From a virus, in the IMG/VR virus record IMGVR_UViG_3300042862_000198, positions 58,177-122,176 of that record: a stretch of DNA of 64,000 bases. One strand, 5' to 3'. Positions 27,474 to 53,527 of the stretch are shown in pieces. The notes under the pieces were generated by a model. It made no database searches and was not told where the DNA came from. It worked only from the letters and a program-made list of their open reading frames with translations. How positions within the stretch are numbered: position 1 is the stretch's first letter; every line of letters starts with the position of its first letter. Position numbers and translations under genes: made by a program.

Positions 27474-30410
27474 ATGGCAACATATCTTCAAGGTGTCACC
27501 GATTATATTCCTGAGTATCAGCCTTTTCAGCCTGATCTAAATTTTTATTCTAATGTTTTACAAACAAAGCAGACTCAGTATGACACAAACTGGAAAGCTT
27601 TAAATAAAATGTATGGTCAGTATTATAATGCTGATTTAACAAGAGATGAAAATGTTTCTAAAAAAGATAATTATTTAAAGCAAATTGAATTTAATTTACA
27701 AAGAGTTTCTCAATTAGATTTATCATTAGAACAAAATGTAAATCAAGCAACTCAAGTTTTTAAACCTTTTTATGAAGATAAAGGCTTGGTTAAAGATATG
27801 GCTTGGACTAAAAATTTTATGAATCAAGTTGGAAGAGCAGAAGGACTTAAAGGTTCAAATATAGTAGCTGAAAGAGAACAGTATTGGAATGATGGTGTGC
27901 TTGCAATGAATTATAAAAGAGATGAATTTAAAGAAGCTTCATCTGAAGATGCTTTATCTTTTGAAAATGCTAGTTATACTCCATATGTAAATACAGTTGA
28001 AAAAGCACAAGAAGTTGCCAAAGCTGCTGGTCTATCTATTGAATCTGTAGATTTTAGTAAAGATGGAAAATGGATTATTAAATCTAAAAATGGTGAGCAA
28101 CTTACTGAACCTTTACAAAGATTATTTGAAGCTAGACTGGGAAGTGATCCTGCTATACAAGAAGTTTATAAAACTCAAGCTTATGTAAATAGAAAAAATG
28201 ATGCCTATGCTAATGCTGCACAATTTGGTGGAGATAAAAATATGGCAGAATTAAAATATCTTGAGAATAGTTTTAATGTTTTAAAAGCTCAAAGTGCTGT
28301 AAGATATCTTGGACTTAAAGAAAGGTCCGTATCTTATGATGCAAAAATAAAAGATCTTGAAAGTCAAGTTGAAAAGGGAACAGCATCTCCAGAAGTAAAA
28401 TTGATGCTCTCTCAATATAAAATGAATAAAGATATTAATGACCAAGTATTATTAAGAGCAGAAAATGAACAAAAAGAATTAAGCAATGGTCAAAGTACTG
28501 CAACTACATCTACTGGTTTTGTAAATCCTTTTGGAGATATTAAGTCTTTAAGGTATAAAGTTGATAATGGAATGGCTTCTACTTTAATGAAAAAAGATTT
28601 AGATGAGGCTGCTAATATATTTGCCTTTAAAGATGCTAAAGTAGACATTGATGCTAATCCATATGCTGTATTAGATGTAAAACACCGTTATAGTATGCAA
28701 GAAACTGCAGCTAGAAATGCTGGTTTAGAAAGAGCTGCTAGAATTAGAAATGCAGGTGAAAAAGATACAGCACTAATGAAATGGAAATTAGAATCTGGTA
28801 CTTATTATCAAGATGAAGAAACTGGAGAAATTCTACCAGTAGAAGCTTTAAATCAAATGTTTGTAGATCCAAATGATAAAGGTACATCTACTGATAAACT
28901 TAATTTAAAAGAAGCTAGTAGACATATTAATAGATTACAAACTGAAAATATTGCAAAGCCTCACTTAACAAATGCACTTACTTTAATTGAAAAAATGGTT
29001 AAAGAAGGTACAATGAGTAAAGAAGAAGCTGGTAAGATATTATCTTATGGCAAAAATCCTAACATTAGTGTTGATTTATTTTCTAAAAAACTTAATAAAT
29101 ATGGTTCTGAATGGTTACGTGCTGAAGTAGGAGCTGATGATTTAGCTAAGATAAATAGTAGAATGAATACTTGGGTATCTCAAAATGGTCAATTATCTGG
29201 ATTATCTACCGCTGAATATAAAAACTTTGCCGTTAGTTCTATGAAGTTTCAAGATTATACTAATTATCTTAAAGCAGATGCTGATTGGAGAAAACAAACT
29301 TCTTATGAAGTAGAAAGAGATTTAAGAAAGCAAGGTTTCAAATATGTAGATTATCTATATGATAATAAGGGTAATCTAAGAAGTCAAAAAGACTTTTATG
29401 GAGCTCTTGAAAAAGCTGGTAAAATTAATAAATCAGAAGCTGAGAAAGGTAAAACATATAAAAAAGATCCAGTTTATGTATCTATGGGACCAGGTTTACC
29501 TGCTATGCCTGTAGAATCTCAACCAGAATCTGTAGATTATAATAGCTTAGTAAAAGCAGCTAGTAGAGTATATACTTCAGGCAGAGTTAAAAAAAATGTA
29601 CCAGGTTTAGATAAATTAGGTACTATGTCGGGTACAGGTAAGTTTACTATGGGTACCACAACTACATGGGTTAATCCTAAAGCACATGGTACAGCAAGTA
29701 CAATTTGGACAGCTGAAGCTTTTAAAGACTTAGCTAAAATGGACTGGGGTGCTAATGATAAAAACAGAGTAACTTTTGGAGGTCTGAGTAAAGATACTTG
29801 GAATAAAAGAGGGGAGATGGAATCTAAGAATAATGTTGGTAAAGCATTATTTGAAGCTATAAGAGGTGAATTAACTAATCCAAAAACTAAAATGGGAAAT
29901 TTCCGTATTGGTGTTTCTCCAATAGCTATTGGATCAATGAATAAAGCTGCTATTATTATCCATCCAAATGCTGAATGGTTGAAAGATTATGTAAAATCTG
30001 GTAAAGAAGGTACAGGAACAGGTCTAATTAGTCAAGATGAATATAATTATATTTTACAGAATGGTATTTCTTATATTACTGATTCTAAAGATATGACTAA
30101 TACAATGTACAAAAGTGCATTCCAGTCTCCTTTACAATCTTATGTAGATCAAGTTGGATCATATACATATACTGATCCAAGAAATGAAAATTATAAATTT
30201 ACAATTGAAAAAAATAAATTAGGTACAGGTGATTATACTACTTCAACTTCATTTCCATTATGGAATCCACAGAAAGGTAAATATGAATATGAAACTGAAG
30301 TAGAAAATACTTCAAACCTTGGAACTAATTTAGAGTCTACAAGAGACATGATGCCCGATCAATTTGATGCAATAATGGATTTAAATAAACAGTTATCTAA
30401 TGGCAATTAA
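27474..30410 (+). CDS. Putative ejection/cargo protein
   Basis: 978 aa, helical, no Cys; first gene of the giant-protein operon. Confidence 0.6.
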   Translation: MATYLQGVTDYIPEYQPFQPDLNFYSNVLQTKQTQYDTNWKALNKMYGQYYNADLTRDENVSKKDNYLKQIEFNLQRVSQLDLSLEQNVNQATQVFKPFYEDKGLVKDMAWTKNFMNQVGRAEGLKGSNIVAEREQYWNDGVLAMNYKRDEFKEASSEDALSFENASYTPYVNTVEKAQEVAKAAGLSIESVDFSKDGKWIIKSKNGEQLTEPLQRLFEARLGSDPAIQEVYKTQAYVNRKNDAYANAAQFGGDKNMAELKYLENSFNVLKAQSAVRYLGLKERSVSYDAKIKDLESQVEKGTASPEVKLMLSQYKMNKDINDQVLLRAENEQKELSNGQSTATTSTGFVNPFGDIKSLRYKVDNGMASTLMKKDLDEAANIFAFKDAKVDIDANPYAVLDVKHRYSMQETAARNAGLERAARIRNAGEKDTALMKWKLESGTYYQDEETGEILPVEALNQMFVDPNDKGTSTDKLNLKEASRHINRLQTENIAKPHLTNALTLIEKMVKEGTMSKEEAGKILSYGKNPNISVDLFSKKLNKYGSEWLRAEVGADDLAKINSRMNTWVSQNGQLSGLSTAEYKNFAVSSMKFQDYTNYLKADADWRKQTSYEVERDLRKQGFKYVDYLYDNKGNLRSQKDFYGALEKAGKINKSEAEKGKTYKKDPVYVSMGPGLPAMPVESQPESVDYNSLVKAASRVYTSGRVKKNVPGLDKLGTMSGTGKFTMGTTTTWVNPKAHGTASTIWTAEAFKDLAKMDWGANDKNRVTFGGLSKDTWNKRGEMESKNNVGKALFEAIRGELTNPKTKMGNFRIGVSPIAIGSMNKAAIIIHPNAEWLKDYVKSGKEGTGTGLISQDEYNYILQNGISYITDSKDMTNTMYKSAFQSPLQSYVDQVGSYTYTDPRNENYKFTIEKNKLGTGDYTTSTSFPLWNPQKGKYEYETEVENTSNLGTNLESTRDMMPDQFDAIMDLNKQLSNGN

Positions 30411-36400: not shown

Positions 36401-36459
36401 CTTCAAATAAATCTCTTGAAGAATTAGATGAAGAATTAATGGATGACTTAGAATGTTAA
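30400..36459 (+). CDS. Giant ejection/cargo protein (Gly/Ala-rich possible membrane segments, coiled coils, degenerate PD-(D/E)XK domain)
   Basis: 2019 aa directly upstream of the vRNAP; SEARLEGG and TEGIQENLQ motifs; the only Cys is the last residue. Confidence 0.65.
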   Translation: MAINDEVFNSLDPLGPEYGKINAPIIDSKGLSPFEGDGIELPKINFPDQGEQFFPIRPNINNLESPQKNVRQSIVGVPQNKPGLNKSANYNDIKAAVKQNLKASIQAKQDKNTYAKIYSYDAGPDGNAFYKRYQAYGQEKFDEIGFSPIRDNESLFNAHTTWWDDHKRMMTNSFWPLFGRGFVAGPKSLGKMLTGDFFGTDLEDAAAYKEAAAIGQSSKKGVASFANNTIMNFGYSAGIMSEAILEEIGGVLLAPETLGGSFVVSTANLLKNTAKAFRGLDMAKDGYKAVNSTLDSINNVQSARKFWEQARNVGKMPLSPIGGTVRAYEAAKTADNLTNLGKAYKTAGGFYRDVVRMNMALSEARLEGGMVENQIYDNLYNQYYAKNDKAPGNALQYDMIKQSKKGALNTVLWNSALIYGSNAIVFPNIMGPKGGIRGYLKSSINEFQTIKGGKFGDFGNIMYNKAGKKIQFEKANFKNMILDYMRKPIHKAALGTLGYFKKNFTEGIQENLQEVISGANEKYYSDTFNSKALGSHEYSKAVSKYNTASQLDYYGKELGNQFTATGFETFASGFAMGTLASPLNFAFKELSIGYNRMFDKETYNTFKEQKLNITKNLIAQLNGIGIQEFLDSKTFNYAVQEGVANIKEQGSKKQANDADLEGIVSQMEYLFNSGTTDIFKEKMRHFSEMTPEEFEEAVPTVPKGEGAKYQAKIPDTLKKLDEVEQDYKNINERYPNPITDDNLPPKGSPEYADAVALSHGWKKAVQNAVYFKQSFKDTMARKAQIMAKYLSQAPLQGMTQRDSEVIFDYDKLRNEAAMLKDEVATLKELKDPESQRQYTIKQRKLEALTKLGEKTVKFSNFFNRYEKAAAIKAELQKQKGDVPVTDEEVEKVMDSVLGEYNDENKIKTFSEHEAAYKDYLRALGEVNGDYLFDQNVDESYELLADHYKLGYEANNLMQYVNLLHDPNAFMETADRNRKWMKELYNKRGEIYEKMIKEQLDLVIDNALLNKLANEGIYISLDDFAQWKKDATPPSEFFDNTRKMIIPEGTTAYDEYYAFFEQASSLKDQSTGTLKESLDQSLSVKLDEIDEQMAEAIDRVPKKEVKTVSTTLKSKNGVNITLAEIFNTLNQEEFAEGVFSEDAEPLVLYKDLEGNLRLGGKEGEIFKNLKATVDFTSVQIYTVSEQSDPQLVAPIEKRYEELKNKTREEYADRLEEITTEEEKPVEDFVPVTNDYESLLDYPALYNSLYKSFNEKILSKLSDQDQVNLTEEEEINLFNRFLKTDKEAKAEIDEFNKKKKLDVTTKETGEKGEFKFMYQGKEKSTEDYKTVVDLRKIQRRFIALINEIDNKENATTEDMTNKSKYKVLVTDFEKLIATRSRKGLTPELRAAIDKINTIKEKQGDIVITEEGITVNGEEYQTANNALGIEEVKSPFKDYVDEQVKNLFDPEGTPMFDETKITQEAYDNLFGDKGYLTKLKQRVDNGELFIVSQGLTVYDTKSKMASTIDLLVADANSNLTIVAVTPDSKSNWDIFNKKDNPKSKIKQAAMLQTANANLLMSMLGTEAKIAVLPIEMSVSTTDDKILSANKPTSPTLLATDFLIALNKTEAQAEIDKLIPVEKVTTTTDTKADIEKQKELENKVKELEEQRKALRSEDGSIPADKMSEFKRLGEEINKAKKAATRGYSDNSMLIKRFSEGADTSVTDPKILSAEDKKEAADIIEQVIQNSKTAEEALKKIQRLGYIFDISVTQNLKKYLDDRFDQNVPKIGNNKDSFQAWIYGKTDAELAALETNVVPADAESSDDVESPAVEAEVKEREVVVIDESVRYKISDFKADLDKVTTKEELNNLLADLSIKNSEQLISYEDLQEMATMVKEKANQLNTPQDIKIVPESLAPGTELVAKNTIFVSGVNVQVDETVVVKSVNASNKTIVVTPLNSTSSVTLTFNTLNQSFTLKDAVMNATEIEEEKVTPEDKIKIVESTDLVDTFVQNKTGRIDQIEETASNKSLEELDEELMDDLEC

Positions 36460-36463
36460 TACT

Positions 36464-39400
36464 ATGAAAGTTACTTGTGCACTTACTCAATCTCAAGTTG
36501 AGAAATTATATGCTAATGTTTATGGTCACATGCTCAACCAAGGGGAAGCATTTGATGCTAAACAATACATGACAGATCTTTTTAATAAGATTGCAAAAAA
36601 TAAGGATGTAGATACTGCAGCTAAGTTTTTGCAACAAGTACCATCTTTGATTGGTACTGCTTCATTTAGACCTAGCATAGAAGAGTTTGAGATAAGCACA
36701 GACATGCTTAGACCGTTGATTAAACAATTTAAGAAAGATGACAATGGTCTTATTAATGCCGTTACTTATTTTAATCCAACTTTAAATCCAGAAGTTAAAA
36801 AAGAACTAGTTGAAAAAAAAGCTAATGAAGCTTTTGAAATAAAAGAAACTTCTTCAGATTCAATTACTGTTGATCCCTTTAATTATCAACCATATTCAGC
36901 ATTATCTACTACATTCCAAGAATTTATTTCTAAAGATCCTAATAAAGATATTGAAACAGAAACCTTAGATCAAGGTAGAAGAACTATCTATACTACATTA
37001 AGTGCTATTAGAGAGAATGCAAATAACAATACTCCATTAAAAGAACTTATTTATCAAGACACAGTATTAAAGTTAAAGCCTATTAAGCTTTCTGATATAA
37101 ATCCTGAGTTATTAGATAAGACTACATTAAGATTACTCAACCGTGCTGGATTTTTACTTGGTGCTAGAAAGGCTCAAGCAAATGTAACTACACCAGATAA
37201 GATATTCTTAATGGTTATTACAGATAATGTTGAGACTGGAAATCCATTATTCTTTGATGAGAAAGGAAATATTACTACTAAAGAACTGGGGGGCACAATA
37301 GTGTTTCAGTTTTTAAGAGAAGTAAGAAAAGAAGGTTCTAATTATAGAGTAACAGATATCTATGGTAAAAGTGATCAGATTATTGATCCGGCAATTGTAG
37401 CACAAAAAGCTGGTATTTCTTTTGAAGAAGCAGAAGCTAGACAGCAAAAGGAATTTGAAGAGCTCTATAACTTTAGACAAAAACTAATTAAAGATAACAC
37501 AGCTCCTTTAATTGATATTGTTGGAGTTAGTACAGGAGTTGGTAGTAATAAACCTCAGTCATTAAATCTTTCTAATGTAACACTTATTCTAGAAGATAAT
37601 GATGATGCTATTAGATCTCTTGATCTTGTAAAGTCACCAAGAGCTGGCTTAATAGAAGGTCAAGGTATAATTACTATTAAAGGTGAAGAAATTAAAGTAG
37701 ATAGACCAAACCTTACTGAAGATATTGCTAGAAAGATTGCTGCAGTATTGACTAATAAGAAGATGACTAATAAGGAGAAGTATTTATTTGTAACTCAATT
37801 CTTGGCAGATAATGTTTCTCCTGCAACAAGAAAACATGATTTAGTATATTTAGAAAATACAGATACACTTATATATAAGTATTCACCTACAACTTTTCAA
37901 CAAGGTTATAGTGAAATGATTACTGTAAACTTAGATGCTCCTAAAGCAGCTGATGTTATTTCTAAATCATTGATGGAAGCTTCTGGTAAAGATGGTAAAT
38001 TCTATCCAGCTAAAATGACTTATAATAAAGTGTTACTTGATGCTAATCTTTATCAAGATTATGATCTTCAGACCAATACATTAAATGATGACTACTCTGA
38101 CTATATTGAATTATTAAAAGGATTACCAAATACAAAAATCTTTTTAGATGTAACTCAAGAAAGTAAAGCTTTTAATAGTTATATGGGTTTTGCAATTCCT
38201 AATCAGTTCACAGAACAATTAGCTAAAGCTCAAGAGAGTACAGAAAATTTAGTTACAGATGATTTATTTGAAACATTATCTGAACCTGAAGATGTTGCAC
38301 CAGTACTTGGTGTTAGAGAAACTAGAGAAAAAATTATTAGTGTTTTAGAAAGTGGTAAACAAGTTAAAGGAACAATATCAAAACCATTTGGTGCAATAAC
38401 TAAATGGCATATAACAACTCCAAAAGGAAATATTATTGAGTTCTATAATAAAGAAAATAATATTACTGCTGAAGACATTGCAACTGAAGTTAGTTTAAAT
38501 CTAGTTCCAGAAGCTGAGTTTAATGGTAAAAAGTTTACTAATGTTATTGAAGTAAAAGCAGGTGATAAGTTACTTGGTTATGTAAGAGAAACTGAAGACT
38601 TTGATGCTCCAAAAACTGCAGCACCAACAAAGACTGTAGAAGAAATTGAAGCAGAGATTAATGAAACACTTGATCCTAAAGGTGTTGGTAAACCTGAAGA
38701 AGGTGGAGCAGCAGATATATTTTTCTATAGAAAAGGTGAATTACCATCAGATGTATCTGAAGAACAAATAGCAGATGCAAAAACATGGTGGGCTAACTCT
38801 CCATTAAATAAACATATTGGATTCAGAGAAGTAGCTAATATAGTTAACTCAGATGCATTTGCAAGATTTACAGCTTATGGTGCCACTCTTAATGGTAATC
38901 TGGGTATGATTGATCTTGCAGCAAAGGGTTCTATGGTAGATGTATATCATGAAGCATGGCATGGATTTTCTCAATTATACCTAAGTAGGGCTGAGAAAAA
39001 AGCTTTGTATAGAGAGGTACAGAAGAAGCTTGGAACTAAGGCTGACTTCTTTGAAATAGAGGAGATGCTTGCTGAAGACTTCCGTGAGTATGTAAGAACA
39101 GGAAAGGTTAAAGCTAACTCTCCAAAAAGAAATAGCTTATTTAGAAAAATCTTAAACTTTCTTAGAGAACTCTTTGGAAAAGGTTCAGTAACAAATACTA
39201 CAGATATTAAAGCTGTCAAAGAGTTATTTGATAACTTATATCTTGGAAAAGGTTTAAACATCTACACGCCATCTATTGACAATGTAATGTTTGATGTGTT
39301 ATATAGAAATAGTGGTGTTGTTAAACCGGGAACAGAGACTGACCAGGTTCTTAATAGACAAGATTCTAATCTACTTAAAGATAGTATGGATTCAATCATC

Positions 39401-42400: not shown

Positions 42401-45400
42401 TTTCAAACTGGTTCTAAAGTAGGTAGTGAAACTTCTACAGTTAATGAAGAAGGTGAAGCAGTAGCAGATGAAATCTATGAGCCTAAGTCTGATCAAAAAG
42501 TTTTAAAGAAAAACATCAAATTTACAAAGAATACTATTTATCTTGAGAATCTTAAAAATGTAACATCTGTTCCGAATAAGTATAAAAACAAAACTGTATT
42601 TTCAACTCAGTTAAGAAAACTTATTTTGGGTGGTTTATACCGTAATGGTAAAATTATTAATTCTAATAATAAAGCAGTTATTAACGCTTATGAAAAAGCT
42701 GTAGATAATTATACTGAAGTTTTAAAACTAGAACTATTACATGAGATTGGTTATGAAGAAAATAAAGAGACTGGTAAATATACCGGAAACTTAAAAGATT
42801 TCTTAAATGTAGTACAAAAACAATTAGGTGATAAAAATGTACCTGAACATCTTATAGAGATGGTGGGTCTTAATAGAGACAACTCTATAAAAACAGATTT
42901 ATCATTACACTTAATGGCTGATGAAATTGAAGCTATCTTAGTTGCATTAGTAGAGAAAAGACTTATTAAACAAAAAGTAAAAGGAGAAGCATTAGTTCAA
43001 GTAGCTAGTTCTATTTCTAATGGACTATGGGATAACAATCTTAAGAAAGGTACTAAAGCAGATATACTAAAGTTTATGGGTACTAATAATCTTCCTTTTT
43101 ATAACAATGACACAGCTGATGGTAAAACATTAGCTATGAAAGTTGCTATAGCATTACAAGGAGACTTTGTTAATTTACTTAAACTTAATCATTTAGATGG
43201 CCAACCTATTGGGACAAGAGCTAGATTAAATGATATGATTAAAGAAGATTCTTGGTTAGATCTAAATGATAATAGAAAGTCTGTTACTTTATCTGCAGTT
43301 AGGATTCCAGTACAAGGATTAAACTCTATGGAGTTTATGGAAGTATATGAGTTCTTAGATCCGGCAGCTGGAAATATTATTATTCCTCCAACTGAGATTG
43401 TAGCTAAATCAGGAACTGACTATGACGTAGATAAGTTAACCACATTTATGCCTACAATTGATACTAAAGGTAACTTTGTTAAAACAGGTATTACTAATGA
43501 TGAATTATTAGCTAAAGTAAATAGATTAGCTGCTACACCAGAAGGTTCAAAAACAGCAACTAACTTAATTAAAATTCAAAAGGCTGCTCTAGAGAATGAA
43601 TTAATATCAACTATTAAAGGTATTCTTGAGTTACCAGATAACTATGCAGGTTTAGTTAGACCAAATGATACTTATTTATTAAAAGATGATATTGCTGATA
43701 AGATTGAGAATGATGTTGTTGAATACAATAGATTTCAGAACATGCATAAAGAATCTGAAAGAATTGGTAAGAAAGGTGAAAAAGTAATTAGCCCTACTAG
43801 AACTCTAGAAGTATCTTATAACTTACACAAGCATGAAGTAAATATGGTTGGTAAAAGAGTACTTGGTTTAATTGCTATTGAAAATGCATTACATCCAGTA
43901 CTTAATTCTATTGGAGCTTCATTACCTGCTACTTATCAAAATCCTGTTTTTGATGAGGCCTTACAAAGAAATGTTGATAGTAAAAAGACTAATAAAACAA
44001 GATTACTATTACCACATAACAAAATAAATGGTAATGTCTCTCTATCTGGTACTGATACAGCAGATGGCTTAGATAATATTGGTGACTTATTTTCACAAAT
44101 GATGAATGGTGCAGTGGATGTTGAGAAAAATCCATGGATATTCTTTATACAAGGTAACTATGAGATAGCACCAATGATTACATTCTTACTTAAAGCAGGT
44201 GTTCCAAAAGAACATGCTATTATGTTTGTATCAAATCCTCTTGTAAGAGAATATGCTAAACAACAAAGAATAATTAAAGGTGCTTATGCTAAAATGATAG
44301 GTAAAATTGATGAAAACTTTCCTGAAACTATGAGTAAATATCAAGCTGCTGTAAATGCACTTGAGACAGTAGGTATTAAAAAAGCTGGTAGCTTAGTTAG
44401 TGCTAAAGGATATTATAAGGCTGCCGTTGATGCTACATCTAAATCTGGAATATTAAATGATGCTCTTGAGTTTGACATTAAAATGATGAGCAAACTTGTT
44501 AAGAATCCTAATGCTCCAGAATTAAAAAATCATGCAGTAGCAATGTTCTTACATTTCTTAGAACTTGAAAAATCTACCCGTGGATATACATCTTTAAAAT
44601 TTATGTCTAATCCAGATACTAAAACTTCTAAAACTTTACAAGAGATAATAAGAAGAAACTTATCTATTGAAGATGCTAAATCAATGTCAACAATAGAAGA
44701 GGGTACTGTTGAAAAAATGATGGATTCTATCTTAGGTTCTTTTTATGATAATAAACTTATTGGTGACTTAATAGTTCCACTATTTCCATTAAGAAATAAT
44801 GATACTGTAACAGATTATATTGTTAAAACTATCCAGTTAAAACAAAATATAATTACTAGAACTTTTGGAAGAGGTCATGATGGTACAAGAAGATTCATTA
44901 CAGAATTTAAAAATGCTATACCTAATTATATCTATCAAAATTACATGTCTAATTTTATAGATGAAAATGGTAATATAACTTCAATGCCTGATAACTTTAA
45001 AGAGTTTCCTGTTAAAGAAAAAGCTGGTGTTAAAAATGGTGCACAAATAATTAATGGTACACTATATATTGATAAGACAAGATTATCTAATGAGTATAGT
45101 AAAAAATTATACTTAAGAGATAATACAGATGCTGCTAGTTATACTAAACAAGGATTGAGAGGTTTTGGAAATGTAGAAAAATTGTTCCCTAATGAATCTA
45201 CATATTTTAAATATGTATTTGAGAGAGAACTTCAAAGAAATCTTTATTCAATGAAATCACTTGAAACTAATAAAGATTATTTAAAAATCAACTCAATAAT
45301 CAAAGATCCTGCACAATCTTATGAAGCATATATTAATCAGAGAGCATTAATTAATGCATTTAATAGAGAAACTATTATGACATTAGATGGCCAATCTTAT

Positions 45401-47650
45401 ACAGATATGGTTTTAAATATGGTAGAAGAATTTTCAGAACTTAAAAATAAGTATCCTATTTTAACCCAATTTACAATACCAAAGGTTAAAACTGGTGAAC
45501 GTGTGCTAAGTTTAAATGATACTAAATCATTAAAGGATGCACAGTTAGCTGAAATTTATTTCCAAAATTTAGAAGATCTTGGAAATGAAGATATTAAAAA
45601 AGTAATAGATCCTGAAGATAATAAGAGAATAAGTAAACTATTTGCTTTATTACCACAAATGATGATGTATCAACATGGTATTGGTTATAGTAAGTATGGC
45701 TTTACAAGAGCATTACCTTATGAAGGATTCATAGGAGTAATGCAAACAGCTTCTGAAATATTTATAAATAAACAACTTAAAGAAGATACACTAGCTGTTA
45801 TCTTTGATAAGTTAGTTGAGCCCGGTAACAAAGTATTTAAAAACTTATTAGTTACACCTAAGCAATATCTTGCTCCAGAACCTTCTGTAGTTAAAGAAGA
45901 AGATGAATTTATGTCTGAAGAAGAAGCAGCAGCTATGCTTGAAAAAATGGGTATTAAGCCTATTGGAGAAGAACCTACTCAACCATCTACTAGTGTTAAA
46001 ACAGAAGTAGTAATTCCAGGTGTTGAAATTAAAAGAAATGCTATAACTAAAGAAGAACAACTTGAGTTATTTAATATTCTTAAACCTTATATTGAGCAAC
46101 AAGGAGCTAAAACCAATAAAGCTACTAGTGCAAATGTAATGATTGGTTTAGGTTTAAGATGGGATTATAAATCAAATAACCCTAATTATAAATCTATTGA
46201 AATAAAAAATATTATTGTACCTGGAAGTAGTGCTAAGTATGGCTACTATGAAGTATCTATTAATGGTCAACCATTAGGTCCTATTAATCCTAGAATTAAA
46301 ACATTAATGTCTAAAGCTACTGGTATAGATGCTACTGATTATGATGGAGCTATAATAAATCTTTATACAGATAAAACTTTTATAAGTGCTCATAATGATG
46401 TAGATGAAGCTGCTGATGCTATTGGATATCCTGTACTTGTTTTAAATATAGGTGGAAGTGGTAATTTTAGTGTACAACAAACTGGAAAATATGAACCTAC
46501 TCCTCTTAATTCTGGAGACTCATATGTTTTTGGAATAAATGGAGAAAACAGAAAAGTAATGCATAGAACTTTTCCTTCTAAACAAGATGGATTTTTACCT
46601 GCAATAACTACAGCAATAGATGGAGAAACTTATTCAGAAGGAAGTTATAGATTATCTATTACTTTAAGAAGAGTAAAAAATCTAGAACCAGGAATGCCTA
46701 CAGTACCAGCTAAGATTACTACTCAACCATCTACTAGTGTTAAAGAAGGCGTTCCAGAATTATTTGAATCCAATCCTGAATTAGCTGATCAAGTATATGA
46801 AGCTTTAGAGTTTCAAAATAAACAAGAACTAGAAAATCTTAAAAAAGAATTTTCTTCTTTTTCTAATATTAGAGATAAGTTTAAAGGAGATTTAAAAAAT
46901 GTAAAAAATTTAGTATCTAGTTTTACTCAAATGTCAGCAGATGCAAATTTTTATAAACCTTTTGCTACTGATATATCAGAACAAAGAAAAAAAGAAATAA
47001 TTTCTGGAAACGCAACTTCATATATTTTTGAAGATAATTTTGATGATTATAGAAAAACTATAAAAAAATCTTTAGATGATGAATTAAAATCTGAAGCTGA
47101 TAGATTTAATTATTGGTTTGAAAGAGGTGATACATACTATTATTTTGATACAGAAAATAAAAAATATTATTCTGTTACATCAAGTATGAAAAATGAAGAT
47201 GGTATTGAAATTACAAAGAAAGAATATTATGATGCTTTAGATGATTATAAGGATGCATTAGAAAAGAAAAATTTACAAGACCAAGAAGATGTAAAAGAAA
47301 ATGTATTAAGACAACCTTTCTTAGAAGGAAGAACAGTAAGACTTTTTGATAATCATTTTGTAATTGTAACAAAGCATGTTATAAAAGAAAAAGGAGATTT
47401 ATTCATAAATGAAATAGAATTTATGTATTATGATGAATTTAATTATGATAGATTAAAGGAATTAGAAAAACAAAAAATAACTCCACTACAAAAACAACAA
47501 GCTCAACAAAAGTTTCAAGAATATGTTGATGCTACTGGTAAACAAGATATAGAAGGATTTAAAAAGTTTGTTACTCAACCACCTACAGATAATCTTAATG
47601 CACCAGATGGATTACCAGGAATACCAAGAACATCAACTGATTGTCAATAA
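36464..47650 (+). CDS. Virion-packaged single-chain RNA polymerase (crAss/phi14:2 gp66-like) with N-terminal zincin and C-terminal AlkB-like domains
   Basis: Catalytic SGTDYDVDKL (DxDxD at 43418-43432), upstream RIPVQGLNSM, DGQGFIT, HKFALAPL; zincin HEAWH (38948-38962)...EEMLAE; AlkB-like HND...H...RLSITLR. Confidence 0.88.
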   Translation: MKVTCALTQSQVEKLYANVYGHMLNQGEAFDAKQYMTDLFNKIAKNKDVDTAAKFLQQVPSLIGTASFRPSIEEFEISTDMLRPLIKQFKKDDNGLINAVTYFNPTLNPEVKKELVEKKANEAFEIKETSSDSITVDPFNYQPYSALSTTFQEFISKDPNKDIETETLDQGRRTIYTTLSAIRENANNNTPLKELIYQDTVLKLKPIKLSDINPELLDKTTLRLLNRAGFLLGARKAQANVTTPDKIFLMVITDNVETGNPLFFDEKGNITTKELGGTIVFQFLREVRKEGSNYRVTDIYGKSDQIIDPAIVAQKAGISFEEAEARQQKEFEELYNFRQKLIKDNTAPLIDIVGVSTGVGSNKPQSLNLSNVTLILEDNDDAIRSLDLVKSPRAGLIEGQGIITIKGEEIKVDRPNLTEDIARKIAAVLTNKKMTNKEKYLFVTQFLADNVSPATRKHDLVYLENTDTLIYKYSPTTFQQGYSEMITVNLDAPKAADVISKSLMEASGKDGKFYPAKMTYNKVLLDANLYQDYDLQTNTLNDDYSDYIELLKGLPNTKIFLDVTQESKAFNSYMGFAIPNQFTEQLAKAQESTENLVTDDLFETLSEPEDVAPVLGVRETREKIISVLESGKQVKGTISKPFGAITKWHITTPKGNIIEFYNKENNITAEDIATEVSLNLVPEAEFNGKKFTNVIEVKAGDKLLGYVRETEDFDAPKTAAPTKTVEEIEAEINETLDPKGVGKPEEGGAADIFFYRKGELPSDVSEEQIADAKTWWANSPLNKHIGFREVANIVNSDAFARFTAYGATLNGNLGMIDLAAKGSMVDVYHEAWHGFSQLYLSRAEKKALYREVQKKLGTKADFFEIEEMLAEDFREYVRTGKVKANSPKRNSLFRKILNFLRELFGKGSVTNTTDIKAVKELFDNLYLGKGLNIYTPSIDNVMFDVLYRNSGVVKPGTETDQVLNRQDSNLLKDSMDSIISEIIDDQVPSKVIKSGTLSILLDSRNREPLYKLIKIKLQDKLDNTTKQLEATEDTKENEFKKELLENRIRILKAGLDNYGDTKNGLIKYHVDNSTYDLMRQKYTALELDEEGNLMEPVNLENTERYGDKKDGQKSLIELAGKETLYILKSLHEGKLNKNTNKIEYQYNELGFKKLADFRTTWNNTVRAIGGIQDAQEQYDKLVEESKTNAQIKQLVDTKIANPENSTNQYEFQATSAIWQDFSKSRIPYIQLTVFKTKIGEKEVPDGYYGTKMIDVFEYSTAVTDASNDVFNVIRKFQENFKASTTNLYVDRIGRDNIPTLNLQKVVDAFGINGKLDTSNSFAFARAIGFYLDDIAIIKNTLKKDTKTIEQFGLPYIYDIVKRLNDKSKLENTNSTVKTVIAKFKNDPIQTLMDGIPENIIGTTREGQKNKIKEIATLQSKYGLEASTGMVLNAERNLVSEFIENNTISKQVYALNNATKLSDLWTTDKFQHMSYLDPATNPYTKRLATIRTLYELSSPEQKRRANRSLKLFMDSGTQIEGEDTGLNTTSLDVNGKFLQEINTMLKDGVQEFMRHASKSSSFGAKIEGGVIGLPGKEGSDGHLWIDVKMFTDNTAYDYGFKAHMLPYMEAEAERIFKFRQNKTEYSKYAGYNRDLGNGLMAGEVFTAFDNVLTKSSKEQIYKAIDKAIAEKKNFNLTEFLRNDDTGLLNTVRDNVRNYFKDQTKINTGLLTNANFISKDLIKKMSDLGVAENQIEDKLVETYTYNSWVQNFEMAVLFYGDMSQYNHDKEELHKRNTGSTSGGRGFRTDIAARNFVKDFLAKTSYAKKDGMPTIAYDGTYNTAIIQDVKRTSEYLGQIEAGLRKDYERRYKEAGVKNAKAEIDIRVEKEISKYKGIEEADGQGFITFDAYRTLRYLENNWSNEQEILFQRILRGEEVNASDITEMFPVYKVQNFGALANTKLPVTAMHKFALAPLIPSVIEGSDLQSLHRQMMEDNIQYVSFQTGSKVGSETSTVNEEGEAVADEIYEPKSDQKVLKKNIKFTKNTIYLENLKNVTSVPNKYKNKTVFSTQLRKLILGGLYRNGKIINSNNKAVINAYEKAVDNYTEVLKLELLHEIGYEENKETGKYTGNLKDFLNVVQKQLGDKNVPEHLIEMVGLNRDNSIKTDLSLHLMADEIEAILVALVEKRLIKQKVKGEALVQVASSISNGLWDNNLKKGTKADILKFMGTNNLPFYNNDTADGKTLAMKVAIALQGDFVNLLKLNHLDGQPIGTRARLNDMIKEDSWLDLNDNRKSVTLSAVRIPVQGLNSMEFMEVYEFLDPAAGNIIIPPTEIVAKSGTDYDVDKLTTFMPTIDTKGNFVKTGITNDELLAKVNRLAATPEGSKTATNLIKIQKAALENELISTIKGILELPDNYAGLVRPNDTYLLKDDIADKIENDVVEYNRFQNMHKESERIGKKGEKVISPTRTLEVSYNLHKHEVNMVGKRVLGLIAIENALHPVLNSIGASLPATYQNPVFDEALQRNVDSKKTNKTRLLLPHNKINGNVSLSGTDTADGLDNIGDLFSQMMNGAVDVEKNPWIFFIQGNYEIAPMITFLLKAGVPKEHAIMFVSNPLVREYAKQQRIIKGAYAKMIGKIDENFPETMSKYQAAVNALETVGIKKAGSLVSAKGYYKAAVDATSKSGILNDALEFDIKMMSKLVKNPNAPELKNHAVAMFLHFLELEKSTRGYTSLKFMSNPDTKTSKTLQEIIRRNLSIEDAKSMSTIEEGTVEKMMDSILGSFYDNKLIGDLIVPLFPLRNNDTVTDYIVKTIQLKQNIITRTFGRGHDGTRRFITEFKNAIPNYIYQNYMSNFIDENGNITSMPDNFKEFPVKEKAGVKNGAQIINGTLYIDKTRLSNEYSKKLYLRDNTDAASYTKQGLRGFGNVEKLFPNESTYFKYVFERELQRNLYSMKSLETNKDYLKINSIIKDPAQSYEAYINQRALINAFNRETIMTLDGQSYTDMVLNMVEEFSELKNKYPILTQFTIPKVKTGERVLSLNDTKSLKDAQLAEIYFQNLEDLGNEDIKKVIDPEDNKRISKLFALLPQMMMYQHGIGYSKYGFTRALPYEGFIGVMQTASEIFINKQLKEDTLAVIFDKLVEPGNKVFKNLLVTPKQYLAPEPSVVKEEDEFMSEEEAAAMLEKMGIKPIGEEPTQPSTSVKTEVVIPGVEIKRNAITKEEQLELFNILKPYIEQQGAKTNKATSANVMIGLGLRWDYKSNNPNYKSIEIKNIIVPGSSAKYGYYEVSINGQPLGPINPRIKTLMSKATGIDATDYDGAIINLYTDKTFISAHNDVDEAADAIGYPVLVLNIGGSGNFSVQQTGKYEPTPLNSGDSYVFGINGENRKVMHRTFPSKQDGFLPAITTAIDGETYSEGSYRLSITLRRVKNLEPGMPTVPAKITTQPSTSVKEGVPELFESNPELADQVYEALEFQNKQELENLKKEFSSFSNIRDKFKGDLKNVKNLVSSFTQMSADANFYKPFATDISEQRKKEIISGNATSYIFEDNFDDYRKTIKKSLDDELKSEADRFNYWFERGDTYYYFDTENKKYYSVTSSMKNEDGIEITKKEYYDALDDYKDALEKKNLQDQEDVKENVLRQPFLEGRTVRLFDNHFVIVTKHVIKEKGDLFINEIEFMYYDEFNYDRLKELEKQKITPLQKQQAQQKFQEYVDATGKQDIEGFKKFVTQPPTDNLNAPDGLPGIPRTSTDCQ
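45975..46000 (+). repeat. 26-bp direct repeat, copy 1 (encodes TQPSTSVK)
   Basis: CTACTCAACCATCTACTAGTGTTAAA, identical to 46719-46744. Confidence 0.95.
46719..46744 (+). repeat. 26-bp direct repeat, copy 2; degenerate third copy at 47572-47586
   Basis: Identical to 45975-46000 and 744 nt (248 codons) downstream; third copy TACTCAACCACCTAC encodes TQPPT. Confidence 0.95.
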
Positions 47651-47677: not shown

Positions 47678-50600
47678 ATGCCTTGTGTAATTAAATTAAA
47701 AGAATTCTTAACTGATCAGATTTATGAGAAATCTAAACCTGCATTAAGCATGTCATATCAAAATGCTATAAGACTAACAGATACTATAAATAAAGAATAT
47801 GGCTACAATGTTGTATACCCTACATTAAGTGATACAATTGAGCTTGAAATAACAATTCCGGAAGCTTTAATAACTGATTATTATAATAATGAGCTTAAAC
47901 TAGAAATACAAGAAGCTATTGAGGTTGCTCAAGCAGCTGAAGAAGAAGCTAGAGAAATACAAAGAAGAGATGCAGAACGTGCAGGTATTCCATATCAAGA
48001 TGATTATCTATTTCAAAATGAAAATGATATTCAAGTGATTGTTGAAAAAACATTTAGAGAAGCAAGAGATCAAGAAATTGCTACTAAGCTAGGTGAAAAA
48101 TATAAAAAAGCTTTTGGAATAGAATATCAAATAGTAACCCCAGGTGAAGCTGCTTTAATCTTACAATTAAGTCCTACACCATATACATCAGATGTATCTG
48201 CTTTCTTTTATGGAAATCAAGTATATTTTGTAAAGGGTAACTTTAATGCTAAAACTGTAGTCCATGAATTTGCTCACCCTTTAATTAAAGGTATTGCATT
48301 TCAAAATCCTAAATTATTTAATAATTTATATGCTCAGTTATCTAGTTCTGTAACAGGACAAGAAGCAATTGAAAGAGTTAAAAGTAAGTATCCTGAATTA
48401 GAAGTTGATTCAGAAAGATTTAAAGAAGAAGCTATTGTTACTGCTATGGAAATAGATGCAGAATTAAAGTTAGAAAAAATTAAATCTGATGATAGCTTGT
48501 TTGATAAGTTTATAGAAACATTAATGTTTGCTATTAAAAAAGTTATTCAAGCTCTCACAAAGAATGTTAATCTTAAAAAGTTAAGCACACGTACTACCAG
48601 AGACCAGCTTGTTGACATGATGATCAATGAAGACTTTGTAATTCAAGATTTAAATTATCAAACAAGTTTATTTGCTGAGTTTAGTAAAGAAACTGATGCA
48701 TATTTAAAAGAACTTAAAGCTCTTGCTCCTGAAAAAATACTAAATACAATAAATAGATTTCATGATGAAATGTCTTTTCAGTTACAAGAATTAAGAACAA
48801 ATCCAAAAAAACTTAGAGAAACATTAGGAAAAGATGCTGAACAAACTATCCGTGGTATAAGAGACTATGTTAATGGATATAAAACTACTGGTGAAAACAT
48901 TTCAGATGATGAGTTACAAACTCTTATAGATTCATTAATTAATGATGAAGCTGATTTAAATGCCAGATCATTAGCTTTCATAAAAAGTTTAACAGAACTT
49001 AATGTATTTGCAAGAAGAGTTCAAAGAGTTCTTGAAGATATGAATACTTCAAAAGAATATTTAACTGAAGAAGGTAATCAAAAGATTCAGTACTTTAAGC
49101 AGTTCATGGAAAGAGAGATTAAATTTCTTAGAGATGTAGAAAAACAATTAGGAATGGATCCTTCAAATGAATTAAGTAAATTAATATTGTCTGTAAAGTC
49201 ATTAATGGAACGTAATTCTGAAACAGCTAAAGATATGACATTTAAATATGTCAAAGATTTACTTTTAGATGCAGGTCTTACTATGCAAGAAAATGTAAAA
49301 GAAAAAACTTCTGATAGAATTGATGAAATTTTAAAAACTGATGGTTTTACAGAAGCTGAAATAAATGATTTTAAAGAAGATTTATTTAATAGATTAGATG
49401 TAGATAACATTAGAGCTATATCAGCAAAAGACTTTAAGTTACCAAGAGAATCTCCTAGAGCTAAATACATTTTAGAAGCAATTCAAGAGTATAATAATAA
49501 TAAAATTACTGAGCAGGTTGTTGATGAATATTTAAGGGGTCATGTAAAAGATCTTGGATTTACAGGAGCTATGTTAAACCCATTAGCTAATGTTAATGAT
49601 TTATTTGGTGCCTTTGTACAGTATGCAAGAAATAAAATTTCAGATGCTGAAGTAAAAAGTGAGCAAGAACAAATGAAGTTTGTTGAAAGTTTAAAACCTA
49701 TTTTAAATGCAATGAATTGGAATCCTAATGATACACAACAATTAGGAAAAGCATTATTATTTGTAGATAAGAAAGGTATCATTAATGAAGATGGTGATGT
49801 TGAAGAATATGAAGCTTATGCATATTTAGATAAATTTAAAGATTGGGAACTTGATGAAGCCAACTTAAAAGGAGCCCTTAAAAAAGCTCAACTTAAAGGT
49901 GACAAGGAAGCAATTAAAGTTGCTATGCAGGCAATAAGAGATTTTGATAGAGACTATAAAGTTAGAAGGTATACAGATGAAGTATATAAGCTACAAGATA
50001 TATGGCTTCAAAGTAATACTGTGATAGATCCTACTACTAAAAAAACTGTTACTATATCTGCAGATGTGTCATTAGAAGCTTATCAAGAAAGAAAGGCTGC
50101 ATTAGATGACTTAAGTACTTATTCTGATTCAAATGAATTTACTTCACTTGATGACTTATTAGAATTTACTCCATCAGCAGCATCAAAAGTAAAGTATAAT
50201 AATCTTTATAATTTATATGATAATAATGGAAATTATAAACAAGGAATAGAATTAGAAAAAGTTTTAGTTAGAAGATACTATAGACAACAATCAAGACAAT
50301 TCTACGAGTCTGTTCCAGTTTTAGATAAATTTCAAAGAGATTATGAGCACTTTGTTAATACTGAACTTGCAAGTTTAGGTATTACTAAAGATGCTACACC
50401 TGATAAATATGAAGCAGAAATTAAAAAGTTTTTTGAAAAAAATACAAGAATAGCTTACACAGATGAATACTTTCAAGATAAAAATGATGTTCTTGCTGAG
50501 ATAAATGCTATTAATGAAAAAGCAAAAGGAGCAGAAATATCTAAAAAGCTTGCTAGTCTTTATGAACAAAGATATACTATTACAAATAGAGTAACAGATA

Positions 50601-53527
50601 AAGATGGAGAACCAAATGGAACTGAACTTGGAATTGACTCTATCAGAAAACTTAAAGCTATTGAAGAAGAAATAGTACTTCTTTCTGAAAGCTTTGATAA
50701 AAAAACTGGTTTATCAAAAACTGAAGCTTATAAGCTTAGGTATTATGAAGAAAAAATAATTGGTGCAGGAAAAGCATCTCAAATGACCCAAGAACAAAAG
50801 AATGAGTATCAGTCACTTGTAGCTAATAGAACAGCCTTTGGTTTATCAGATCAAGAAATTACATACTTAAGAGGTTTATTCAAAAAATTAGCAGAGTTAA
50901 CAGATAATGTTGCTACTGATTATTATGTTGATTCATTTAATACAGCACTAGGAGAACTTGAATTAGAACCTATTACAATTGATACTGCAGATGATTGGAT
51001 TAATTCACAAAATACTCTTCAAGCAAAAGCAGATAATCCAAGATTTTCAGAATGGTTTGATAGAAATCATTATGAAAAAACTGTATTTAATCCTGTACTT
51101 GGAGTATATGAATCTAGATTTTTTAGAACTAAAGCTTGGACAGTTTCAAAACCTTCAAATCCTAAGTATTTTAAAAAGACAGAACTTATAGATCCTATCA
51201 CTGGTGAAAAGATAACCATTGATGGTGTTCCAATTGCAAAATATTCTTATACTAAAATTAAAGATAAGTATAAAACAGGCTTTAATGCTAAGACAGGTAA
51301 AGTTGAGTTAGAAGTTGGTACTCATATTGATAACCGTGGAAACTTTTTACCTAAAGAACAAGCTTTAGGAAGTACTTTTGGAAAGTATATGAATGAAAGG
51401 TACTATGAAATGAAAAAAACTAATAGTCCTGAGTTTAAATTACTAGAAGCTATTAAAAAACAAAGACTTAAAAATCAAGAAGATAGTCCTTATGCATCTA
51501 GAATGTATTTAGATTTTCCTAGATTTAGAATAGCTACTACTCTTGAATATGGTCAATCTGGTGAATTAAAAAATAAAACAGTAGCTATTGGAGATGCATT
51601 AAAAGCTTCAGTATATAAAAGAGCTGCAGATGATGCGGAATCTGGTCAAGCAAATTTTGATCCTGAGTTTATATATGTTCCAACTGATTTACAGGGAAAA
51701 CCAATACCAAAAGTTCCAGTATCTGGTTTATATAAAATGCCAATTAATTCAGTTTCTTTAGATGTAATAACATCTGAATTAAACTACATGAATTCTTTAG
51801 ATATACAAAAAGTTTTGATTGACTCACAGTCTTCAGCTACAGCTATTCTTGATGTTCTTGGAGATCCAGATAATGCTTTAGATAAACTAGATATGGCAAG
51901 TAGTAAATTATCTAATGCTCAAGATAAAACAGCAGTGTTTTTAAAAAGAGATACTAATCAAAGATACCAGTTTGCTAAAGATGTTATTAATAGAATGTGG
52001 TATGGAGAAAAGGTAAGTGAATTTCAACAAGAAAACCCTACTATATCTAAGATAACAAGAAAAGCAATGGGAGCTGCAAGTTTTGCATTCTATGCTTTAA
52101 ATCCTGTTTCTACTATTAAGAATAAAGGAGGAATGACATTTCAAAAACTTATAAAAACTGCAGGTGGAAAATATATTAATTTTCCTGCAATGGCAAGAGG
52201 AGAAATTAGAACTTATAAAGCTATGTTTGATTATGCTACATCAGGAACATATACAACAGGTTTAAAAAGTTTAGATATGCAGTTAATGGATGCATTTGAT
52301 ATGTCTCCAGGTAAGACTAAAAAAGATGCAAAAAGAACTCATACAAATACAGCAGTTAAAAATTTATTAGATGCTACTTGGATGTTTTCTGATAGAAAAT
52401 TAACAGAGGTACAAGGGGCACTTGAATTAGGCTTTGGTTTAATGGAATGGCAAGAAGTTGATCAAATACAACCTGATGGTTCAGTTACAAAAATTAGATA
52501 TGCAGATGCCTTTGTAATAGGTGAAGATGGTATTGCAAAAATAAAAGATGGTATTAATCCTGAATGGGGAATGAACTATACTGATCATACTGTAGTTGCG
52601 GGAGATACCTTAGCATCAATTGCTAAACAATATCATATGACTGTTGAAGAGTTAGCAAAGAAAAATAAAATAGAAACAAATGCTAAATTAGAAGATGGTA
52701 AAGAACTTATTATATCTAGAAATACTAAGTTTAATATGATGAAGCTTAGAATGTCAAGTACTAATAAAAAATTAAATGGTAGTGTTGCAGCAATTGAAGG
52801 TCCTACTGCAGAAAAACATTTACTATATGATGTAGCATCATTCTCAAGAAAGTTTGGTACAGGTATGTTTTTATCTAGATTCCAAATGGATACTTCAAAA
52901 GGTAACCGTGGTGGAGCTGTATGGGATTGGGATTTAAATGAAACTACTAAAGGTAAGTATATTACATTTGCACAGAATATGACTAAATTACTCACAGATG
53001 CTAAAAACTATTGGCCAATAATGAAAGAAGAAGAAAAAATTGCTATGCGTGAAATTTTTACAGAAGGTATGTTAATATTCATATCAGGTGTGGCAATATC
53101 TTTATTATTTGGATTCAAAGGAGATGATGAAGATAGATTTCAAAAGTTAAAAGAAAGAGAGGCAAAATATGGTACAGCAGGTTGGGTTGCAAATCATATG
53201 CTTTATCAAATTATCATGGTACAAAAAGAAAATACTAGTATGACTCCATTAGGAGCAGGTGAATGGTTAGACTTTACCAAAACAACTAACATTATGATGG
53301 GGCCTACATTAGATCTTTATCTTAAGATTTTTAAAGACTTAGGATACATAATTTCAGGAAATGATAAAGCTGTTTACAAACAAGAAGTTGGTCCATATGG
53401 ATGGCAACAAGAAGGTGAGTATAAAATATGGAATCACTTAGGTAGCATAGTTGGATTATCAGGTAAGAATTTAAGTCCTTATTGGGCTATTAAGAAGCAA
53501 GAAATATTTACAAACTTGAAAGGGTAG
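47678..53527 (+). CDS. Giant ejection/cargo protein with zincin (HExxH) domain, LysM domain and C-terminal hydrophobic helix
   Basis: VVHEFAH (HEFAH at 48263-48277)...EEAIV; LysM HTVVAGDTLASIAKQYHMTVEELAKKNKI...LEDGKELII (52586-52714); MLIFISGVAISLLFGF. Confidence 0.75.
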   Translation: MPCVIKLKEFLTDQIYEKSKPALSMSYQNAIRLTDTINKEYGYNVVYPTLSDTIELEITIPEALITDYYNNELKLEIQEAIEVAQAAEEEAREIQRRDAERAGIPYQDDYLFQNENDIQVIVEKTFREARDQEIATKLGEKYKKAFGIEYQIVTPGEAALILQLSPTPYTSDVSAFFYGNQVYFVKGNFNAKTVVHEFAHPLIKGIAFQNPKLFNNLYAQLSSSVTGQEAIERVKSKYPELEVDSERFKEEAIVTAMEIDAELKLEKIKSDDSLFDKFIETLMFAIKKVIQALTKNVNLKKLSTRTTRDQLVDMMINEDFVIQDLNYQTSLFAEFSKETDAYLKELKALAPEKILNTINRFHDEMSFQLQELRTNPKKLRETLGKDAEQTIRGIRDYVNGYKTTGENISDDELQTLIDSLINDEADLNARSLAFIKSLTELNVFARRVQRVLEDMNTSKEYLTEEGNQKIQYFKQFMEREIKFLRDVEKQLGMDPSNELSKLILSVKSLMERNSETAKDMTFKYVKDLLLDAGLTMQENVKEKTSDRIDEILKTDGFTEAEINDFKEDLFNRLDVDNIRAISAKDFKLPRESPRAKYILEAIQEYNNNKITEQVVDEYLRGHVKDLGFTGAMLNPLANVNDLFGAFVQYARNKISDAEVKSEQEQMKFVESLKPILNAMNWNPNDTQQLGKALLFVDKKGIINEDGDVEEYEAYAYLDKFKDWELDEANLKGALKKAQLKGDKEAIKVAMQAIRDFDRDYKVRRYTDEVYKLQDIWLQSNTVIDPTTKKTVTISADVSLEAYQERKAALDDLSTYSDSNEFTSLDDLLEFTPSAASKVKYNNLYNLYDNNGNYKQGIELEKVLVRRYYRQQSRQFYESVPVLDKFQRDYEHFVNTELASLGITKDATPDKYEAEIKKFFEKNTRIAYTDEYFQDKNDVLAEINAINEKAKGAEISKKLASLYEQRYTITNRVTDKDGEPNGTELGIDSIRKLKAIEEEIVLLSESFDKKTGLSKTEAYKLRYYEEKIIGAGKASQMTQEQKNEYQSLVANRTAFGLSDQEITYLRGLFKKLAELTDNVATDYYVDSFNTALGELELEPITIDTADDWINSQNTLQAKADNPRFSEWFDRNHYEKTVFNPVLGVYESRFFRTKAWTVSKPSNPKYFKKTELIDPITGEKITIDGVPIAKYSYTKIKDKYKTGFNAKTGKVELEVGTHIDNRGNFLPKEQALGSTFGKYMNERYYEMKKTNSPEFKLLEAIKKQRLKNQEDSPYASRMYLDFPRFRIATTLEYGQSGELKNKTVAIGDALKASVYKRAADDAESGQANFDPEFIYVPTDLQGKPIPKVPVSGLYKMPINSVSLDVITSELNYMNSLDIQKVLIDSQSSATAILDVLGDPDNALDKLDMASSKLSNAQDKTAVFLKRDTNQRYQFAKDVINRMWYGEKVSEFQQENPTISKITRKAMGAASFAFYALNPVSTIKNKGGMTFQKLIKTAGGKYINFPAMARGEIRTYKAMFDYATSGTYTTGLKSLDMQLMDAFDMSPGKTKKDAKRTHTNTAVKNLLDATWMFSDRKLTEVQGALELGFGLMEWQEVDQIQPDGSVTKIRYADAFVIGEDGIAKIKDGINPEWGMNYTDHTVVAGDTLASIAKQYHMTVEELAKKNKIETNAKLEDGKELIISRNTKFNMMKLRMSSTNKKLNGSVAAIEGPTAEKHLLYDVASFSRKFGTGMFLSRFQMDTSKGNRGGAVWDWDLNETTKGKYITFAQNMTKLLTDAKNYWPIMKEEEKIAMREIFTEGMLIFISGVAISLLFGFKGDDEDRFQKLKEREAKYGTAGWVANHMLYQIIMVQKENTSMTPLGAGEWLDFTKTTNIMMGPTLDLYLKIFKDLGYIISGNDKAVYKQEVGPYGWQQEGEYKIWNHLGSIVGLSGKNLSPYWAIKKQEIFTNLKG

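Follow-up and report, generated by a model that had tools for sequence, protein, structure and literature searches.

A head-to-tail disulfide between phage ejection proteins is known from one cyanophage structure. In the cryo-electron microscopy structure of the pre-ejectosome of cyanophage A4 (Anabaena phage A-4L), gp26 receives the C-terminal helix of gp27, and a disulfide between gp27 Cys1715 and gp26 Cys5 stabilises the contact (PNAS 2025, PMC12002296); in its accessible text, that paper reports the bond for a single structure and does not present it as conserved. In the A4 genome, gp27 (1717 aa) has a single cysteine at position -3 (negative positions count back from the C-terminus), and gp26 (1114 aa), encoded by the next gene, has a single cysteine at position 5. 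In N4-like phages (Schitoviridae), cysteine is suppressed in the ejection proteins, which has been ascribed to passage through the periplasm (DEV paper, PMC11445570), and the giant virion RNA polymerase and its companions are nearly cysteine-free. Here we examine a 64,000-nucleotide stretch of viral DNA (positions 58,177 to 122,176 of IMG/VR record IMGVR_UViG_3300042862_000198; hereafter the window), the final 64 kb of a 122,176-bp record, which encodes three consecutive giant proteins, A, B, and C, likewise nearly devoid of cysteine, whose few cysteines face each other across the gene junctions and probably join the proteins by disulfides into one chain. The sequence-only reading of this DNA, which proposed such a chain, knew of no earlier description; we found no paper on a terminal-cysteine rule in Crassvirales in the literature searched, but a C-to-N disulfide between ejection proteins had been seen in cyanophage A4, so that what appears to be undescribed is the order-wide, multi-protein form that includes the polymerase.

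Four large open reading frames (ORFs) lie in a row on the plus strand of the window. The first encodes a 978-aa protein (27474-30410, +) that adjoins the chain on its upstream side and has no cysteine. This protein is probably virion cargo as well; its positional counterparts in the related loci listed are cysteine-free except in L072, where two cysteines occur, and neither PHROG nor Pfam gave a match for it. Protein A (30400-36459, +; 2019 aa, 227 kDa) has one cysteine, its final residue (Cys2019, codon TGT at 36454-36456, +); protein B (36464-47650, +; 3728 aa, 422 kDa) has cysteines only at residue 5 (TGT at 36476-36478, +) and at the penultimate residue 3727 (TGT at 47642-47644, +); and protein C (47678-53527, +; 1949 aa, 223 kDa) has one, at residue 3 (TGT at 47684-47686, +). 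Together A, B, and C contain four cysteines in 7696 residues, every one at a terminus facing the next protein. These positions had been read by eye, as had the absence of cysteine from the 978-aa protein, and a script count returned the same four and no internal cysteine that had been missed. For each of A, B, and C, the stretch from the preceding in-frame stop to the assigned ATG contains no ATG, GTG, or TTG, so the positions of the N-terminal cysteines are independent of gene calling, and comparison with homologues shows the N-terminal sequence to be kept from Met1 onward. By comparison, the cysteine content of ORFs outside the chain, in the window and related loci, is 1.45% (722 of 49,916 residues), and the other window ORFs of at least 100 aa range from 0.4 to 7%. 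The probability that four randomly placed cysteines would occupy all four facing terminal segments, one in each, is 3.6e-11, which in the window alone argues against chance.

The same arrangement recurs in relatives. The database holds 303 homologues of B, and among the 120 listed (40-97% identity), from which the cysteine counts are taken, 105 have exactly two cysteines, four have three, and 11 have one. A cysteine is present at each end in 109 of these proteins, and internal positions account for 4 of their 233 cysteines, over 426,466 residues. Ten of the 11 one-cysteine homologues have termini unlike the conserved ones and are probably truncated or mis-started calls; the remaining one, P0019, keeps the conserved start and Cys5. 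Both C5 and C3727 are invariant columns in an alignment of 26 B homologues (A1), and a search of IMG/VR with this alignment returned 78 loci at 30-74% identity, where the B sequence alone returned none. Our tally covers 73 distinct loci, the window included, with 509,136 aa of chain proteins. A cysteine marks the C-terminus of A in 64 of 65 loci, the two termini of B in 63 of 66 (N) and 63 of 63 (C), the N-terminus of proteins following B in 71 of 71 cases, and the C-terminus of middle (inserted) proteins in 9 of 9, and it is found at none of the outer ends, neither the N-terminus of A (0 of 58 loci) nor the C-terminus of the last protein (0 of 57). The single miss at the end of A, in locus L076, is a mis-assignment (the real A ends ...NCQ) that also explains the miss at its B start, which actually reads MITC. 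The other two misses at the start of B are a start assigned too long (L056) and a frameshift in a run of ten A (L019), where the true start reads MVNC; this run, at about 10130-10140 of L019, shifts the polymerase frame some 45 codons past MVNC and could be an assembly error or a site of slippage. The sequence-only reading had seen pairing across junctions in one genome, and in these 73 loci the terminal cysteines prove both conserved and paired.

Away from the ends, cysteine is all but absent from the chain proteins: 270 of their 291 cysteines are terminal and 21 are internal, a frequency far below that of other ORFs. The terminal cysteines lie 3-6 residues from the start and 1-9 from the end, and they are invariant down to about 30% identity. 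In alignments of the last 150 aa of A (A2) and the first 150 aa of B (A3), each of 62 sequences, the cysteine is the sole invariant column; at the 70 junctions downstream of B, it is the sole column at least 80% identical on either side; and the C-terminal tails of B are unrelated in sequence between clades, yet all of them carry it. On this sequence evidence, the terminal-cysteine pattern is not chance. One might still suppose that cysteine is neutrally tolerated at disordered ends, since the depletion of cysteine from ejection proteins is already known in N4-like phages and only the few that remain would call for an explanation. Neutral tolerance does not readily account for cysteines that are invariant to such low identity, and the N4-like proteins, as far as the accessible text of the DEV paper describes them, keep no such conserved terminal cysteines (gp71 homologues have 0.00075% Cys), unlike the facing ends here. 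The regularity of the positions could also mean that the cysteines do other chemical work at the termini: they might take part in processing or ligation, form a thioester or acyl intermediate, or mark the proteins for packaging by the assembly machinery. These proteins do include a zincin-like module, and a preprint on phage phi14:2 (bioRxiv 10.1101/2020.03.07.982082), which reports fusion of the three proteins in some phages, proposes that the fused polyproteins are cleaved. We consider such chemistry very unlikely, given that no conserved flanking residues form a catalytic or recognition site and that the outer ends, which a general end signal would mark, have no cysteine.

The pattern extends to the described crassviruses phi14:2 and crAss001. 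Judged by sequence, B is a crAss-type two-barrel virion RNA polymerase of the phi14:2 gp66 family: its residues ~1690-2330 match phi14:2 gp66 and crAss001 gp50 (blastp E 9e-20 and 4e-14; tblastn E 3e-13 to phi14:2 g066). Similarity is weak between A and crAss001 gp47 (blastp E 4e-5) and between C and both phi14:2 gp65 (E 1e-4) and crAss001 gp49 (E 5e-4), and hhalign of A1 against phi14:2 gp67 found nothing. The window proteins share with phi14:2 gp67, gp66, and gp65 and with crAss001 gp47, gp50, and gp49 a homologous polymerase core and the same cysteine pattern, but the identity is only 20-25%, B of the window carries a 2-oxoglutarate-Fe(II) (2OG-Fe(II)) oxygenase payload, and its A/B break falls on the opposite flank of the zincin module from the one in crAss001. 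In phi14:2, the cysteines are at -1 of gp67 (1797 aa), at 3 and -2 of gp66 (2180 aa), and at 3 of gp65 (1421 aa); in crAss001, they are at -3 of gp47, at 5 and -9 of gp50, which has one internal cysteine in addition, and at 5 of gp49. The crAss001 gp47 gene lies on the strand opposite to gp50 and gp49 and the pattern holds, which implies that the rule acts at the level of protein and excludes a DNA or mRNA signal at the gene junctions. With this, the notion that the pattern reflects chance, neutral tolerance, or a nucleic-acid signal has a negligible probability and is refuted as far as sequence can show. The three phi14:2 proteins are annotated as virion proteins by tandem mass spectrometry, and mass spectrometry detected those of crAss001 in virions, where they were placed in the cargo zone of the capsid (crAss001 paper); by analogy with these relatives, A, B, and C would be packaged in the virion and injected. 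Neither source appears to have remarked on the cysteines: the word cysteine is absent from the main text of the crAss001 paper, and the phi14:2 preprint, in its accessible text, mentions neither cysteine nor disulfide.

In genomes where the chain is cut differently, the cysteine pair follows the cut. In nine loci, B and C are separated by one or two additional proteins of 242-762 aa, each with exactly one cysteine per end. Over their C-terminal ~120 aa, these extra proteins share homology with the end of B from genomes without them (E down to 2e-22), and the B proteins of those genomes have no internal cysteine. The tail ...LK(A/N)(I/L)C always stands before the head M..CP(I/N)K, whether the tail is on B or on an extra protein. 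Conversely, A and B are one protein in cr118_1, cr113_1, and cr1_1 (Suoliviridae) and in cr108_1, where the fused protein has no N-terminal cysteine and no cysteine lies at the junction inferred by blastp to the phi14:2 and crAss001 proteins; both flanks of the junction are fixed only in cr118_1, cr113_1, and cr1_1, and cr108_1 is loosely bounded, with a cysteine (Cys1534) inside its A-type zincin module. All of these A-B fusions keep the B-to-C pair, with a cysteine at -2 to -4 and another at 3-5 of the next protein. In cr113_1 this holds although the late genes, read with table 11, contain many in-frame stops (73 in gp38), consistent with the stop-codon recoding of that phage. In cr108_1, some 290 nt (21797-22088) break into the polymerase gene within its catalytic motif (...AKAGSD / LYDIDK...), an insertion that resembles an intron. 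In crAss002, it is B and C that are fused: gp32 ends with a cysteine at -2, and gp33 has no C-terminal cysteine and would have Cys3 if its start is Met33, a start inferred from sequence. The loss of the pair on fusion, which the sequence-only reading had named as a check, is what the A-B fusions display, more loosely in cr108_1 than in the others. Relative to the fused RNA polymerase polyproteins of other crassviruses, module content and order (A, zincin module, polymerase, C) are unchanged in the window, but the genes are separate with a cysteine pair per break, where the fused forms are joined by peptide backbone and have no junction cysteine.

The zincin-like module shows that the breaks differ between lineages. 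It occupies residues 2149-2323 of crAss001 gp47, at the end of A, and residues 818-982 of B in the window (hhalign probability 94%, E 1.2e-7), where its HEAWH motif (B residues 829-833; 38948-38962, +) is invariant at H829, E830, A831, W832, and H833 in A1. Because the module lies on the other side of the break, the A/B breaks of the two lineages are not homologous and the ancestral array has been cut at different places; in each lineage the cysteine pair stands where that lineage is cut and is missing where the other one is. The A/B gene break has, in other words, moved across an HExxH domain between the window lineage and crAss001. That the cysteine pattern exists, is conserved, and follows the gene breaks is observed directly in these genomes.

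A co-fold of the facing ends of A and B (the last 150 aa of A with the first 150 aa of B, using A2 and A3) suggests how such ends might meet. The predicted complex scores 0.80 by the interaction prediction score from aligned errors (ipSAE; runs of 0.77, 0.80, and 0.80), while the highest of three controls scored 0.00; as a yardstick, 58 of 80 solved complexes attained this ipSAE mark, as did 2 of 110 mismatched pairs, counts that apply only approximately here because we supplied our own alignments. At least 66% of contacts are common to the runs, and the partner has a predicted local distance difference test (pLDDT) value of at least 74. The predicted interface joins residues 147-150 of the A fragment (2016-2019 of the full-length protein, ending in Cys2019) to residues 1-18 of B, which hold Cys5, and this model, taken with the score, supports, as a prediction, docking of the A C-terminal tail on the B N-terminal domain. 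The A2 and A3 profiles matched no related solved chain and no sequence-similar complex, so the score is not a memory of one. Modelled alone, residues 1-150 of B are predicted to form a helical domain (mean pLDDT 75), for which Foldseek found no significant neighbour in the PDB (E up to 0.001). The predicted geometry resembles the insertion of the gp27 helix into gp26 reported for cyanophage A4, and the placement of cysteines is also alike: in large proteins otherwise free of cysteine, a single one sits close to the C-terminal end of the upstream partner and a single one close to the N-terminal end of the downstream partner. The systems differ in that two proteins are linked in A4, neither of them an RNA polymerase, as against three to five here, and in that the bond is observed there and inferred here. 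As to the co-fold that the sequence-only reading had suggested, it supports docking as a prediction.

Docking of the facing ends could be followed by something other than a disulfide. The two cysteines might instead act, with acidic residues close by, as ligands of a bridging metal (Zn or Fe), which would fit the pairing statistics equally well and would sidestep the oxidation of thiols in a reducing cell, and the tail of A is indeed acidic beside the cysteine in some cases (e.g., LLDDLDC). We think a metal bridge unlikely: each terminus offers one cysteine and no other conserved ligand, the cysteine being the only invariant column; many tails have no acidic residues (e.g., ...NSKIC and ...KFKNCQ); and the solved A4 case is a disulfide. 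Alternatively, the terminal cysteines might bond to portal, capsid, or tail proteins, or to a second copy of the same protein, and so anchor each cargo protein separately. Intersubunit disulfides are indeed numerous in crAss001 virions, at the portal vertex as well as in the tail, and the cargo proteins are not resolved in the crAss001 maps, which leaves their partners unseen (crAss001 paper). A disulfide chain predicts free outer ends, equal numbers of head and tail cysteines, and gain or loss of pairs with gene fission or fusion; anchoring to other virion proteins or homotypic dimerisation yields none of these. Bonding to other partners would thus leave unexplained the bare N-termini of A and bare last C-termini in every locus counted above, the one cysteine per end in all nine inserted proteins, and the loss of the pair on fusion, and the co-fold model favours docking of A to B; we judge it improbable.

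The explanation that we prefer, and consider the probable one, is that A, B, and C, otherwise cysteine-free cargo proteins, form a disulfide-linked chain, A-S-S-B-S-S-C. The three proteins would be packed in the capsid as cargo and injected into the host, each C-terminal tail docking on the N-terminal region of the next protein and one cysteine per side locking the contact by a disulfide. The product would be a pseudo-polyprotein of 871 kDa that keeps one N-to-C direction throughout, the counterpart, made from split genes, of the polyproteins that other crassviruses encode as fusions. Such links would keep A, B, and C at 1:1:1, with each protein dragging the next through the tail, and would open in the reducing cytoplasm of the host. 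Since a joint would leave stubs of at most ~9 residues, a narrow channel could admit the thread about as readily as a fused polyprotein; according to the crAss001 paper, the cargo must partly unfold to pass constrictions under 50 Å, and gp45 leaves N-terminus first. We infer the disulfide chemistry, the time of formation (after assembly or lysis), the ordered passage, and the reductive release from the pattern and the model. The head-to-tail linkage that the sequence-only reading proposed passes the comparative tests, and with the disulfide itself inferred we regard that proposal as partly supported.

Several points weigh against a disulfide chain in crassviruses. The evidence for the bond consists of sequence and a model, not chemistry; the co-fold is a prediction that gives no S-S distance, and the cargo is unresolved in the crAss001 maps, as noted above. 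Because the host cytoplasm is reducing, the bonds must form after assembly, outside the cytoplasm or in the closed particle. A search of the phage genome with a working control found no thioredoxin gene, and a search for an Erv1 thiol oxidase gave no match but was uninformative, its control being silent too. Homology of the crAss termini to A4 gp27 and gp26 was not found (hhalign probability <1%), nor did the A2 and A3 profiles match the A4 PDB chains at E up to 10, so that A4 serves as an analogy only. Locus L063 has A split into 1613 and 789 aa (at 7629-7632, with overlapping TGA/ATG), colinear with the intact A of L070, and this is the only junction found that has no cysteine; the split may be an assembly frameshift. 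Finally, gut crassviruses have some internal cysteines, with seven in all in crAss002 gp33 and five in cr118_1 gp14.

If the covalent head-to-tail chain is real, it would explain the equal copy numbers of the cargo proteins, their ordered N-to-C threading through the tail, and the freedom with which these genes are fused or split between lineages; there would then be an explanation for how crassviruses pack, order, and inject a protein cargo of almost a megadalton, the infection-starting polymerase among it. It would also turn an observation on a single cyanophage structure into a rule that applies to the phage order most abundant in the human gut, and represent a natural, redox-released coupler for protein delivery. 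For annotators, terminal cysteines are a simple sequence mark of cargo proteins and their order. A bolder version of the disulfide chain, which we hold possible but a little short of an even prospect, is that a cysteine pair with a docking tail is a general modular coupler for any protein with a cysteine head and a cysteine tail, making variable trains of three to five proteins that thread N-to-C as a pseudo-polyprotein of 0.6-1 MDa and are uncoupled by reduction in the host. Payloads would then include a polymerase, an oxygenase, an ADP-ribose-related or kinase protein, and a peptidoglycan-binding protein, and gene fission, gene fusion, and payload swapping would be free of cost.

Few families are recognised in the chain proteins: PHROGs matched neither A nor B, Pfam gave only a 2OG-Fe(II) oxygenase domain in B and a LysM domain in C, and a sequence search of the PDB with the whole of B found no match. 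The LysM domain, which binds peptidoglycan, covers residues 1637-1679 of C (52586-52714, +; PF01476, E 1.6e-9), and C also matched lysM and endolysin PHROGs.

Elsewhere in the window, cysteine is distributed quite differently. The 762-aa protein at 25119-27407, upstream of the cysteine-free block, has all eight of its cysteines in one cluster (CxC, CxC, CxC, CxxC at residues 448-499); its counterparts in L004, L008, L028, and L078 have similar clusters, and it matched no family. Two ORFs, at 9376-12408 and 1828-4395, are very rich in cysteine (6.8% and 7.3%), in sharp contrast to the cargo block; the former has DUF285 repeats and a weak PKD match and is perhaps a fibre or receptor-binding protein. 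Among ORFs outside the chain, 31 of 174 have an N-terminal cysteine, but 28 of these 31 belong to one conserved minus-strand family that is not poor in cysteine and has no relation to the chain. In the window, its member is a 387-aa DUF932 protein (53599-54762, -) with the start MPKKIKDC and an acidic tail ending ...DFF; a cysteine at position 8 and this tail are kept by the gene at the corresponding place in 28 related loci.

The layout of B runs from an N-terminal docking domain through the zincin-like HEAWH module and the polymerase to a C-terminal payload domain. This payload region, roughly the last 15% of B, varies among homologues: in the window it holds an AlkB-like 2OG-Fe(II) oxygenase domain (residues 3187-3402; 46022-46669, +; PF13532, E 1.8e-12), where homologues have PF08719 (DUF1768), PF18760, PF25176, kinase, or helicase domains, every one of them free of cysteine. 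The DxDxD metal-binding motif of the polymerase, DYDVD (B residues 2319-2323; 43418-43432, +), has D2319, D2321, and D2323 invariant in 26 sequences.

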